Source: Octopus sinensis | Lineage: Eukaryota | NCBI RefSeq assembly: GCF_006345805.1 | Contig: NW_021823992.1 | Coordinates: 1-20,857, forward strand | Length of the DNA: 20,857 nt | Direction of reading: 5' to 3' | In this document: positions 2,469 through 18,800 of the stretch, in pieces | Layout: every line of letters begins with the position of its first letter | Numbering within the stretch: position 1 is the first letter of the stretch | Notes under the pieces: generated by a model | The model's input: only the letters and a program-made list of their open reading frames with translations | What the model was told of the DNA's origin: nothing | The model's database searches: none | Translations under genes and position numbers: made by a program

Positions 2469-3063
2469 GGTGGCTAGCTGGCAGAAACGTTAGCACGCCG
2501 GGCGAAATGCTTAGCGGTATTTCGTCTGCCATTACGTTCTGATTTCAAATTCCGCCGAGGTCGACTTTCCCTTTCATCCTTTCGGGGTCGATTAAATAAG
2601 TACCAATTACGCACTGGAGTCGATATAATCGACTTAATCCGTTTGTCTGTCCTTGTTTGTCCCCTCTGTGTTTTGCCCCTTGTGGGTAGTAAAGAAATAG
2701 GTATTTCGTCTGCCATTAAGTTCTGAGTTCAAATTCCACCGAGGTCGACTTTGCCTTTCATCCTTTCGGGGTCGATTAAATAAGTACCAGTTACACACTG
2801 GAGTCGATATAATCGACTTAATCCGTTTGTCTGTCCTTGTTTGTCGTCTCTGTGTTTAGCCCCTTGTGGGTAATAAAGAAATAGGTATTTCGTCTGCCAT
2901 TACGTTCTGGGTTCAAATTCCGCCGAGGTCGACTTTGCCTTTCATCCTTTCGGGGTCGATTAAATAAGTACCAGTTACGCACTGGAGTCGATATAATCGA
3001 CTTAATCCGTTTGTCTGTCCTTGTTTGTCCCCTCTATGTTTAGCCCCTTGTGGGCAATAAAGA
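2469..3063 (+). mobile_element. SINE family A trimer: one tRNA head + 3 x 184-bp body
   Basis: A-box-like TGGCAGAAACG, B box (G)AGTTCAAATTCC in each unit; units start at 2517, 2701 and 2885; each ends A(A/G)TAAAGA. Confidence 0.92.
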
Positions 3064-3080
3064 CTATCATATATAATACT

Positions 3081-3295
3081 TGTGTTTGAATGCGTCTTTG
3101 TACCCCCACCATCGCTTGACAGCCGATGTTGGTTTGTTTACATTTTTGTAAATAAGCGGTTCGGTAAAATAATCAATTAAATAAGTACAAGACTTTAAAA
3201 ATAAGTATTGGGCTTGATTTGTCGGAATAAAGCTTTCAAGGCGGTGCCCCAGCATGGTCGCAGTCCAATGAACGAAACAAGAAAAAGGTAAAAGG
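3081..3295 (+). mobile_element. 3' half of SINE family B
   Basis: CATCGCTTGACAGCCGATG...GCGGTTCGG...AAGGCGGTGCCCCAGCATGG; homologous to 9130-9345(-) and 14915-15040. Confidence 0.8.
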
Positions 3296-3500
3296 TAAGT
3301 TACAAAGTGGAGTGATGGCAGAACGGTTAGCGTATCTACGAAATGTTTAGTAGCATTTCCTCTGATTCTTTACGTACTGAGTTCAAATTCCAACGAGGTC
3401 CGTTTAGCATTTTATCTATTCAGAGTCGATAAAATAAGATACCAGTTGAGTACTGGGGTCTATGTAATCGACTATTCCATCCCTCTAAAACAGCTGGTCT

Positions 3501-4146
3501 GGATCTTTTCCTTTTGAACGGCAGACAATTTCTAGTTAACTAAACACTTTAAAACTTCGTATACTGGTAGAATGTGTCAAAATAAAACATTTTTTTTCTT
3601 TTGGCTTTCTTGAGAAAATTGTAATTTGTTTGTTTAACGTAGTTTAACTTTTCGAATTTTAACCAATCCTATGCTCTCTTTTGAGCTAAAATCATTTGCT
3701 GCGTCTAAAACTGAGACAACATCCTGTAACTAACCCTAAACCTCCCCCCTAACCCTATTTTTTTTTCTTAATTGTTAAATTAATTTAATTGTTACGCGTG
3801 TAAAAAAAACTAAAGCAACGGAATTAAATTAATTTAATAATTAAGAAAAAAAACTTTAGGGTTAGGGTTAGGGTTAGGGGGGAGGTTTAGGGTTAGTTAC
3901 AGGATGTTGTCTCAGTTTTAGACGCAGCAAATGATTTTAGTTGAATGGAGGTAATCGATTGGTTAAAATTGCCGAAATGCTCGGATTTTCAGACGAAAAT
4001 CTATAGAATTACAAACTATAGAATTTTCTCAATAAAACCAAGCGAAAATGATGTTTTATAAACACATTCTACCAGTATACGAAGTTTAAAAGTGTTTAGT
4101 TAACTAGAAATTGTGTTGACATCTGCCGTTCAAAAGGAAAAGATCC
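3501..4146. mobile_element. Non-autonomous foldback DNA transposon with ~300-bp inverted arms and an 8-bp TSD (Merlin- or Mutator-like)
   Basis: Termini GGATCTTTTCCTTTTGAACGGCAGA / TCTGCCGTTCAAAAGGAAAAGATCC; TSD GCTGGTCT at 3493-3500 and 4147-4154; the arms pair almost to the centre (~3800-3830). The superfamily is inferred from GG...CC ends and TSD length only. Confidence 0.92.
3856..3896 (+). repeat. Interstitial telomeric-type repeats (TTAGGG)4 plus a variant, mirrored by CCCTAA at ~3731-3757
   Basis: Four perfect TTAGGG at 3856-3879. Confidence 0.9.
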
Positions 4147-4221
4147 GCTGGTCTTATGCCAAAATATGAAGCCTTTAGTGCGTCGACCAAAATGCTCAAC
4201 GACATTTTCTTCCGACTCTTT

Positions 4222-4700
4222 AGAGTTCAAATTCCTCCGAGGTCGATTTTTGCGTTTCATTCTTTCATCGTTTCGATAATGCCACTGAACATTTCTTTCG
4301 ACGCACCGAACTTTCTGCCAACAACAACACCACCACCAACAACAATAATAATATCTATTTCTTTACTACCCACAAGGAGCTAAACACAGAGGGGAAAAAC
4401 AAGGACAGACACGGGTATTAAGTCGATTACATCGACTCCAGTGCGTAACTGGTACTTATTTAATCGACCCCGAAAGGATGAAAGGCGAAGTCGACCTCGG
4501 CGGAATTTGAACTCAGAACGTAACGGCAGACGAAATACGGCGACGCTTTTCGCCCGGCGTAGCCGTATTTCGTCTGTCGTTACGTTCTGAGTTCAAATTC
4601 CTCCGAGGTCGATTTTTGCGTTTCATTGTTTCACCGTTTCGATAATGCCACTGAACATTTTCCTCCGACGCACCGAACTTTCTGCCAACAACAACAACAC
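4222..4700 (+). repeat. ~110-bp direct duplication (4222-4335 and 4589-4700) flanking the SINE
   Basis: GAGTTCAAATTCCTCCGAGGTCGATTTTTGCGTTTCATT...GACGCACCGAACTTTCTGCCAACAACAACA is present twice. Confidence 0.9.
4354..4560 (-). mobile_element. SINE family A monomer with 5' inversion
   Basis: Reverse-complement family A body; at 4557-4560 (GCGT) the sequence flips to the + orientation of the same SINE. Confidence 0.88.
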
Positions 4701-16660: not shown

Positions 16661-16662
16661 TA

Positions 16663-16696
<34 letters not shown>

Positions 16697-17009
16697 GCTA
16701 TAACGGAGCCCTAACACGGATCTCAAGATCTAGCCTTAGCCTTGATCTTGGAATCTAATGGTCGACCAACTATAGCACTTACCCAGCGTACCTATTCGTT
16801 TAGATCACAAGTGAACCAAGCCTCTCATATTCTTGTATATTTATGTGTGTGTAGCCAAACTTTTTAAAAGTCATAATATTTGAAGAAAGCTGTTCTTAAA
16901 TGAAAAGTTGATTATATAAAAATATCTTAAAGAAGCAAAAAGACATGAACAAGTGTATGCATGAATGTAGGAATGTCTCTATGCATAAATATACATGTTT
17001 ACACACGTA

Positions 17010-17516
17010 CCGTAAATCCTTGAGTATAGTCCGCCCTTGAGTATAATACGCAGGGGATTTTTAGGCGGCTGTACCTCTGAAAACGTAACCTTCGGTATAG
17101 GCACCCCTTCTCTAGTTTGAGTCAAGGAGGTCTATATAACGTCCTTGGTTTGTAAAAATTATACAGTAAATGTCCTTTATTATTATTGTATATATAACAT
17201 AATGCAAACGTGTAGCTTTTTTGTGCATTTTGTTTGCAAAAAATAAAGAAATAACAGTAATAACGTTTAATAAATGTTGCTTACTGCAAGTTATGGATGA
17301 TTCTTTTATGACTTCATTGCTTTCAGGCTTAGCTTAAGTTATTTTCGCGTCCGACATCACAAAATGCGTCTGAATAAACATTGCCGGACAGCAAATAGAG
17401 ACTCGGACATTGCTTAGAAAATAATTTTCATTTTTAACCTCGTATATAGTACGCATTAGGGATTTTGACCTTTAAAATTTTGGGAAAAAATGCGGATTAT
17501 ACTCGAGTATTTACGG
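17010..17516. mobile_element. Tc1/mariner-superfamily MITE (Tc2/pogo-like CCGTA termini)
   Basis: TA|CCGTAAATCCTTGAGTATAGTCCGC ... GCGGATTATACTCGAGTATTTACGG|TA; TA TSD; subterminal direct repeat CCTTGAGTATA. Confidence 0.88.
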
Positions 17517-17934
17517 TATGTATATACACGTTTATATATATATATGTGTGTGTGGTGTGTGTGTGTGTGTGTGTGTGTGTGACTGAGTAGATACCAAATA
17601 CGTGTATGTGTTTACTCAATATTTATGTCTTTCCTTTTTGCAGTCGGCCATTCACATTTATAAGTGTACCAGCCATTTTTTTAAAATATATGAATAAAAT
17701 ATATAACCCTTTAAGTTGGTGCTCCAGCATGGCTGCAGTCAAATGGCTGAAGCAGTTAAAGACAAAGTTAAACGAAAAACGGAATTTGCAAATTGACTGA
17801 TAATGGCATGAAAAATTTAACAAATAACAACCACGCATCATATTCATTAACTGACGTCAGCAAAAATACTGACCAATCACAAATTGTTTTTTTGTTAATC
17901 AGTTAAGCTTTGGAGGAACTTAACTCAGCTTGTA

Positions 17935-18800
17935 CAGGGTGACACAAAAGGAAAAAACGAGAATTTTTGAAAAACCCAACGAAAACAGGAAAAATCCAAA
18001 TCTAACAAAAAGAAAAATTATTGACAAATTAAACTACTAGCCTTTTAAGAATCAGTAATCAATCCAAATTATTAATGTCCGAAAATTACATCCTGTAGAT
18101 GGCGTACTTCTCTACGTATGCATTATTTTCTACTCTAGGCACCAGGCCCGAAATTTTGGGGGAAGGGCCAGTCGATTAAATCTACTCCAGTATGTAACTG
18201 GTCCTTAATTTACCGAATCCGAAAGGATGAAAGGCAAAGTCGACCTCGGCGGAATTTGAACTCAAATACCTATTTCTTTACTACCCACAAGGGGCTAAAC
18301 ACAGAGAGGACAAACAAGGACAGACAAACGGATTAAGTCGATTACATCGACCCCAGTGCGTAACTGGTACTCAATTTATCGACCCCGAAAGGATGAAAGG
18401 CAAAGTCGACCTCGGCGGAATTTGAACTCAGAACGTAGCGGCAGACGAAATATCGCTAAGTATTTCGCCCGGCGTGCTAACGTTTCTGCCAGCTCGCCGC
18501 CTTCCTCGGCGATGCATTCTACCCATCTGCCGTTGAGGTTCCCCATTGCTCGGAGCAACATCTCAGTTGATATACTACCAATTTCGTCTTCAATTCTTTG
18601 TTTCACTTCATCCAATGTCCTCGGCCGAACCGTGTAGACTCGACTCTGAAGGTAGCCTCACAAGAAAAAAATCACAAACGGAGAAATCCGGTGTTCATGG
18701 AAGGTCAGTGAACGCCCCCGAATCTTAAGATGACACGGTTATCAAACAATCTCGCACAACTGCCATTGGTTGCCTTCTAGTGGGCGATGTCACGCCATCC
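17935..18800 (-). mobile_element. DD41D (rosa/Visitor-type) Tc1/mariner remnant: right end plus transposase C-terminal part, split by SINEs
   Basis: TA|CAGGGTG terminus at 17933-17941. After correcting frameshifts the minus strand reads DGVTSPT..VILRFGGVH*P..PDFSVCDFFL*GYLQSRVYTVRPRTLDEVKQRIEDEI..WVECI (18800-18505) and CIRREVRHLQDVIFGH* (~18125-18072). Confidence 0.82.
18126..18502 (-). mobile_element. SINE family A full monomer joined to a second unit carrying the alternative tail
   Basis: Head GGCGGCGAGCTGGCAGAAACG at ~18501; junction AAAGAAATAG|GTATTT at 18270/18269; the second unit has an internal deletion and an AAATTTCGGGCCTGGTGCC tail. Confidence 0.88.

Follow-up and report, generated by a model that had tools for sequence, protein, structure and literature searches.

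A 20,857-nucleotide (nt) stretch of Octopus sinensis DNA (NW_021823992.1, referred to as the window), which is microsatellite-rich animal DNA with a GC content of ~38%, carries a short interspersed nuclear element (SINE), here SINE A, that forms dimers and trimers of a 184-nt unit at four separate loci, always through the same junction. We give roughly an even chance to the reading that these multimers go back to a dimer founded by a join that the machinery of a long interspersed nuclear element (LINE) made, that this dimer was retrotransposed as one read-through transcript, and that further units were gained by local unequal exchange. The reading rests on the distinct tail of the last unit, a set of bases common to the first units of two loci, a base present in both free G-type monomers and in no internal unit, and a majority unit without a T4 run. 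All 12 units analysed come from this one window.

Tandem Repeats Finder reported period-184 arrays at 2516-3063 (3.0 copies), 5249-5797 (3.0 copies) and 15066-15428 (2.0 copies), and a fourth multimer at 18170-18501 was added by BLAST. We refer to the loci as L1 (2469-3063, plus strand), L2 (5244-5839, minus), L3 (15061-15428, minus) and L4 (18126-18502, minus). In six of six cases, at all four loci, tail and following body are joined without a spacer as AAAGAAA(T/C)AG/GTATTT (2700/2701 and 2884/2885 in L1; 5614/5613 and 5430/5429 in L2; 15247/15246 in L3; 18270/18269 in L4). A preliminary description of this DNA had claimed a 184-bp unit with one junction at four loci; the claim was borne out, and its coordinates and tail markers were correct. 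Given ~200 possible starts, simple arithmetic puts the chance that three further loci share one start point at ~1e-7. Counting as young the loci with at least 90% identity to the first copy (the second unit of L4 has 86%), and setting older fragments apart, there are seven young SINE A loci: four multimers, two monomers and one copy cut by the window edge. The presence of 13 young units within 21 kb implies a high genomic copy number.

Between the 500-nt flanks of the multimers, the only similarity consists of fragments of a different repeat that lie in opposite orientation; the four loci are therefore not segmental duplications, a source that the preliminary description had itself considered and that we rule out. 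Adjacent units are 3-18 substitutions apart with no indels and are thus not duplicated reads; an assembly artefact was likewise rejected for SINE A. Splicing was rejected as the source of the join, there being no GT-AG pair at the places needed. The flank comparison, like the unit tree described below, was made without the copy at the window edge.

L1 carries its head once, at 2469-2516, with a motif near 2479-2493 that we take to be A-box-like and a hairpin at 2499-2528 (loop 2512-2515). Its units 1 (2517-2700) and 2 (2701-2884) have G-type tails (G152, T171, G184), and unit 3 (2885-3063) has an A-type tail (A152, C171) and stops 5 nt before the unit end. L2 has a 5'-truncated head (5798-5839) of a variant that is also present in a fragment at 4557-4632, of which 4557-4588 is an inverted head fragment, and partly in the monomer at 4356-4555. 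Units 1 (5797-5614) and 2 (5613-5430) of L2 are G-type, 3 differences apart, and group together with a tree support of 90/92; unit 3 (5244-5429) has an A-type tail with the end AAGA and differs from units 1 and 2 at 13-15 sites. L3 is headless: its G-type unit 1 (15247-15428) starts at unit position 3, and its unit 2 (15061-15246), which combines A152 with T171 and ends in AAGA, differs from unit 1 at 18 sites. In L4, a full head (18502-18454) and a G-type unit 1 (18453-18270) with 1 singleton change together span 18270-18502 and are followed by a second unit at 18126-18269. The preliminary description had called this locus a heterodimer. The junction is indeed kept; the second unit, however, is of another, more diverged tail type and has lost 18 nt, since after GTATTT unit positions 7-24 are deleted. 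This unit, of what we call the A' subfamily, carries 11 departures from the majority over 95 positions, compared with 2-5 for the other 11 units, and a tail like its own is found on a single headed copy within protein match P0003. The two free monomers, at 556-766 and 4356-4555 (both minus), have G-type tails followed by GATAT and GATATT, respectively. The copy at 1-103 (plus), of which the window edge leaves the 3' part, reads A152, C171, G184 and then ATATT, and is taken as a terminal or monomer-type end.

A complete SINE A element consists of a 48-nt head segment and one 184-nt unit. Monomers measure ~232 nt and multimers at most 595 nt, copies are interspersed on both strands, and stop codons are present in the listed reading frames, in keeping with the small size (under 1 kb) and non-coding nature of a SINE. 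Two motifs lie 64 nt apart that we take to be A-box-like and B-box-like. As the unit starts between them, the full promoter is present only in the first unit of a multimer. By the SINEBase definition, a tRNA-derived SINE has 60% or more identity to a tRNA across 60 nt, is transcribed by polymerase III and numbers 100 copies or more. In SINE A, ARAGORN found no tRNA gene and Rfam gave no tRNA match at E<=1, no set of tRNAs having been aligned. The majority unit has no T4 run despite seven T3 runs (157 of 2000 shuffles are alike, p ~0.08).

The junction coincides with the border between the loop and the 3' arm of a 13-bp hairpin in the head. This hairpin has a z score of -4.69 in L1, where none of 200 shuffles folds equally well, and of -4.8 in one other copy and -3.0 and -2.3 in two more; in L1 and in the 556-766 copy its 3' arm begins at the G just before the unit. 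The end of the unit, in turn, is the natural 3' end of monomers. After G184 the motif G-R-TAT follows at 9 of 9 ends (G-A-TAT at the three monomer-type ends, G-G-TAT at the six junctions), compared with a background of 60 in 36,511 sites. The tail marker described below is explained by this motif, since only tails of the kind called internal have G-R-TAT after them. With a hairpin border and a motif common to monomer ends at the site, the breakpoint appears not to be arbitrary, and it could be struck more than once by separate events. This weakens the premise of the preliminary description that independent events would not share a breakpoint. For the 4356-4555 monomer, a paralogue of the flank that is not interrupted also has the TATT tract, there after GG, which only partly settles whether the G-R-TAT bases belong to tail or target. 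This monomer is flanked by a 135-nt direct repeat (4223-4353 and 4589-4723, 93%) that begins with an old piece of SINE A. For the 556-766 monomer, joining the flanks (520-556 and 767-790) gives a hammerhead-like core, as do 71 of 2000 random flanks, so the flanks were probably contiguous before insertion; this suggests insertion into a repeat that we take to be Penelope-like. Because 10 of 12 trial boundaries pass, the check is blind to GATAT being target or tail.

A hairpin at the breakpoint is also what programmed template jumping would use: within a single insertion, the reverse transcriptase would stall at the head hairpin and jump to the 3' terminus of a second G-type RNA with a tail able to pair with the 3' arm. 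End-to-end jumping of non-LTR enzymes is established, L3 starts at unit position 3, and in 3 of 5 elements the unit start is the best or tied-best duplex site for the tail within its own element. We nevertheless consider this route unlikely. Only one of six real junctions folds better than shuffles, so the junction hairpin is not general; templates taken from a pool of RNAs would not be expected to give the locus clustering that is seen; and the second unit of L4 looks decayed for a transcribed template.

Tails differ by place within the multimers. The preliminary description had assigned CTATG to terminal and CTGTG to internal units, and indeed CTATG is present in the terminal units of three of three homomultimers and in copy 1-103, and CTGTG in six of six internal units, with GGGCA in three of the four CTATG units. 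As a terminal marker it holds only within multimers, as both free monomers carry the internal CTGTG: the contrast is significant among multimers (p=0.012) but less clear when free monomers are included (4/6 versus 0/6, Fisher p=0.06). Position 152 thus separates 3 of 3 homomultimer terminal units from 0 of 6 internal ones, and the end AAGA occurs in 2 of 3 terminal units and in no monomer. Position-specific bases recur across loci at 152, 171 and 184. Adenosine-to-inosine editing was rejected as a source of G152, as singletons have no strand bias (A>G 2 and T>C 3 of 36) and 171 is a C/T difference. The first units of L3 and L4, at different loci, have C16, G125, T147 and G173 in common, and A123 is present in both free G-type monomers and in none of the six internal units.

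The 5' part of the unit behaves differently from its tail. Over positions 5-140 units cluster by locus (p=0.014), while over positions 141-178 the clustering follows position (p=0.018, the minimum attainable, with a boundary set after inspection). Both patterns would follow from arrays that expand and contract between fixed edges, and the mosaic fits 5' parts evened by exchange between neighbours with the junction-side and last tails kept distinct. A15 is present in all three L1 units and in no other unit, and the last unit of L1 has 0 singleton changes compared with 4 and 4 in the units upstream. Among the 84 triples of the nine multimer units, a perfectly splitting column exists for three: the three units of L1, the three terminal units and a further, unrelated set. 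In L2, unit 2 has C13 like unit 3 and is otherwise like unit 1, whose T13 goes with its head variant, as found also at 4557; from these two bases L2 reads as a dimer in which a duplication, through a crossover within positions 14-25, probably produced the trimer. An age gradient along the array is seen in L2 and L4 and not in L1 and L3 (pooled p=0.22), and the spread of singleton counts inside loci shows no overdispersion (p=0.22).

Locus clustering and the near identity of L2 units 1 and 2 are also what DNA slippage would give, if each array had arisen locally from a monomer, guided by the short match between monomer end and unit start. Local expansion does occur in the window, as an array at 7172-8831 shows: it comprises 11 copies of 148 bp with 97% matches, at 7172-8794, each holding at least 58 nt of a second SINE and ~70 nt of other DNA. 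The second SINE, which is presumably CORE-like, is broken there inside its tRNA-like head, and the full head is present in the last copy only; scattered 1-nt indels in the array may be read errors. Yet this array contains flank DNA and has its own breakpoint. Slippage also predicts equal internal and last tails, whereas position 152 differs at three of three loci and the L3 units differ at 18 sites, and it could not yield the heterodimer. As the sole cause it is contradicted and very improbable, and it is retained only as the step from dimer to trimer. Dispersed copies of the second SINE lie at 6205-6355, 20144-20232 and 20675-20830.

A still smaller probability goes to rolling-circle reverse transcription of a 184-nt circular RNA, which the preliminary description had offered as an alternative and which finds little support here. 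The unit ends are complementary in some copies, and a circle would account for the A15 common to the L1 units. Three of the four loci, however, have a head that the circle would lack, and the last units differ, so that each insertion would need two extra template switches. No Rfam ribozyme family matches the unit at E<=1, no hammerhead core is found in L1 or L2 on either strand, and the sequence around the join offers no GT-AG back-splice sites.

The window also contains a candidate partner for SINE A, the 5'-truncated end of a LINE at 11997-12802 (plus), with an open reading frame running to 12423 (zf-RVT knuckle) and a 3' untranslated region, lying between (TCTA)n tracts; this single copy thus sits inside a (TCTA)n tract. 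Its zf-RVT match is weak (E 0.0006, under the curated cut-off). A UniRef protein of Octopus bimaculoides matches the fragment with 97% identity across 26% of the query. In a relative with 69% identity both RVT_1 and zf-RVT score above cut-off, and among solved structures this relative is closest to L1 ORF2p (E 2e-17, compared with 2e-6 for R2). For every one of the six SINE tails tested, the best match among 36,031 non-SINE sites is to the last 45 nt of the LINE (12758-12802), at 27-31 of 45 nt compared with at most 24 elsewhere; SINE A therefore has a 3' tail in common with a LINE, as expected of a SINE and its partner. The LINE tail carries the G-type bases at 152 and 171. We infer that the partner belongs to the L1/Tx1 group, the measured affinity (zf-RVT, relative) being with the L1 group, and that among the tails of SINE A the G-type is the ancestral one. 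Target specificity is common among Tx1 elements (PMC4494074; this and the other papers cited are drawn on in excerpt).

Under the reading that we favour, SINE A would comprise a long-lived quasi-dimeric lineage made of a tRNA-like head, a G-type unit and a headless A-type unit. L1/Tx1-type machinery would have joined a G-type tail to G-R-TAT at the border of loop and 3' arm in the hairpin of another copy, either by priming at the head site or by a template jump. RNA polymerase III would then start at the single head and read through units that have no T4 stop, and the dimer RNA would be reverse-transcribed whole from its last unit, often with 5' truncation as in L3. Unequal exchange between neighbours would add units and make their 5' parts alike, with a G-type tail preserved on the junction side and an A-type tail on the last unit. 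The join would be remade or recombined now and then, as in L4.

The preliminary description had proposed that the multimer is itself the transposing unit. No other single explanation accounts as well for the distinct last unit and for the high share of multimers (four of seven young loci); the heterodimer and the test of unit positions do not support it. That test held that units would cluster by position if there was a multimeric master; whole units (the eight of L1-L3) cluster instead by locus (exact p=0.025), with no significant clustering by terminal position (p=0.14). This and several other observations weigh against the reading set out above. Most of the unit gives no signal by position, with no position-specific bases over 5-140. 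The terminal units are 11, 15 and 18 differences from one another, no closer than they are to internal units, and the tree, built from 11 units, has a star shape in which L2 units 1 and 2 form the only group and 7 of 8 inner branches are unresolved. The L4 heterodimer calls for a separate event and is not the clean product of one master. A T4 run is present in 4 of 12 copies, two of which are first units of multimers. Around six loci (four multimers and two monomers) candidate target-site duplications (TSDs) measure 4-7 nt, compared with 3-7 nt in 30 mismatched pairs, so that none above control surrounds a whole multimer, where a dimeric subfamily that moves as a unit would be expected to have one. 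Since none is found around monomers either, the family may simply make no TSDs. Among the best 7 of 19 matches in a phmmer scan, six are single copies, one is an unrelated repeat protein and none spans the junction. Several markers were also chosen after inspection, and 12 units are too few. Two word-index searches of proteins with junction-spanning frames gave no match, and a prokaryote scan gave two short chance matches only.

Part of the same evidence can be explained without movement of whole multimers. As the main rival, we regard it as possible, though clearly less probable than the dimer reading, that G-type monomer RNAs recurrently enter the G-R-TAT of older heads by target-primed reverse transcription, with the cDNA joining the old head by homology so that one head is left; the chain would grow in place and need not move whole. 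SINE A would then tentatively be a self-homing SINE that its partner LINE keeps inserting at its own head hairpin, possibly guided by base pairing between RNA tail and 3' arm, with heads merged by homology and chains that may move afterwards. The G-R-TAT that follows every G184 end, far above background, and the TATT tract in the uninterrupted flank of the 4356 monomer both favour this, and in 4 of 9 element-probe pairs no site matches the monomer ends better than the head site does (1/206 twice, 3/205 twice). So do L4, which joins a young unit to a diverged unit of another subfamily, and the LINE tail with its G-type 152 and 171 inside (TCTA)n. Tandem SINEU-3 copies, once called a subfamily, set a precedent, having been reread as sequential insertion of the Tx1 type (PMC4494074). 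Repeated insertion would account for the junction, the marker and L4, but it fails on L1, where the last unit is the least changed and A15 is in all three units. It also sits poorly with the even singleton counts within loci, with the absence of G-type tails from the last units (0/4) and with a second G-R-TAT at unit position 106 that is used in none of the six junctions, and it requires seamless head joining without duplication at each locus.

The dimer reading and its rivals can be set beside systems described elsewhere. In TSD-(SINE)n-TSD multimers of the blood clam Scapharca broughtonii, the head is complete in the first copy and truncated in those behind it (PMC11481361). These make up at most ~3% of copies, compared with four of seven young loci here; they are flanked by TSDs, none of which were found around the octopus multimers; and their inner tails are truncated, whereas those of SINE A reach the natural end. 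Unequal recombination is given as the cause in the text excerpted, which reports no programmed site (PMC11481361). The squamate sSat arrays resemble SINE A in having units of partial SINEs, often with box B kept and box A lost, recurring unit boundaries over many loci, and distinct leading and trailing units (PMC10702118). They differ in being subtelomeric and up to hundreds of units long, with short arrays whose boundaries vary, whereas the short octopus arrays have one boundary, and in the excerpt their authors found no transposing dimeric SINE (PMC10702118). The homogenised, heterochromatic middle units (at least four) that characterise sSat have no counterpart in SINE A, with at most three units per locus.

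The dimeric and quasi-dimeric SINEs Alu, B1-dID and the quasi-oligomer CHR illustrate that a subfamily can arise from a single polymerase III transcript that contains an internal duplication (PMC3531059). In the octopus the unit number varies, the break separates box A from box B within the tRNA-like head, and different subfamilies meet at one locus. Crocodilian SINEU-3, moved by Tx1-Mar, is similar in its L1/Tx1-type partner and in forming tandems by repeated insertion at a fixed target; that target is a Mariner element, with a TSD between full copies (PMC4494074), whereas the candidate target in the octopus is the SINE's own head, with no spacer. Patella PcH-sat is a 179-bp molluscan tandem unit derived from Nin-SINE, though in this limpet it is pericentromeric and without both boxes (PMC11121367). 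In B2/Dip, 40-49% of copies are in head-to-tail multimers, but of full-length copies (PMC8466645). Non-LTR retrozymes of molluscs form tandem units of 150-450 bp from dimers upward, and are defined by a hammerhead in each unit, without a tRNA-like head (PMC7229834). Retrozymes also give abundant circular RNAs of monomer length. No such ribozyme was found in SINE A by the Rfam and hammerhead searches described above. Presumably SINE A resembles the SINEs with Deu or Nin domains; a motif search of published supplements, covering part of the files, gave no match. The main octopus SINE groups are tRNA-Deu and tRNA-Core (PMC8967140). No report of such multimers in octopus was found in the literature searched, which excludes Repbase, Dfam and most subscription papers. 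The architecture is thus already published for clam and squamates, and the octopus case differs by its share of multimers, by one junction in very short arrays and by a candidate sequence cause.

Other repeats in the window include old SINE A relatives at 3339-3473 (plus) and 9758-9897 (minus), which have 74-76% identity and other tails and are single copies. At 3501-4146 there is a large imperfect palindrome, MITE-like (resembling a miniature inverted-repeat transposable element) or fold-back, with TTAGGG repeats in its arms, which gives spurious microRNA matches. An 84-nt dispersed repeat, 88% identical between 10829-10912 and 19809-19892, is presumably akin to the end of a Mariner-type element. 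Outside the window, a 706-aa predicted protein (P0004), peptidase-like by eye, has ~45 residues of antisense SINE A near its N-terminus, which is either an exonised copy or a gene-model error.

For SINE multimers and satellites in general, published work has not decided between an origin by insertion into an existing copy and one by retrotransposing a dimer (PMC8466645, in the excerpt consulted). With its fixed junction, linked markers and candidate partner LINE, SINE A suits that question. If SINE A is self-homing, more than half of its young loci would have become spacer-free chains able to move as new units, and there would be a recurrent, sequence-programmed route from a SINE to a dimeric SINE and to SINE-derived satellite. 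SINEs make up 11.6% of the O. vulgaris assembly (PMC13282606), and their internal structure is not described in the excerpts of the octopus repeat literature consulted. If instead the dimer is the moving unit, annotation based on monomers would miscount and misdate insertions.

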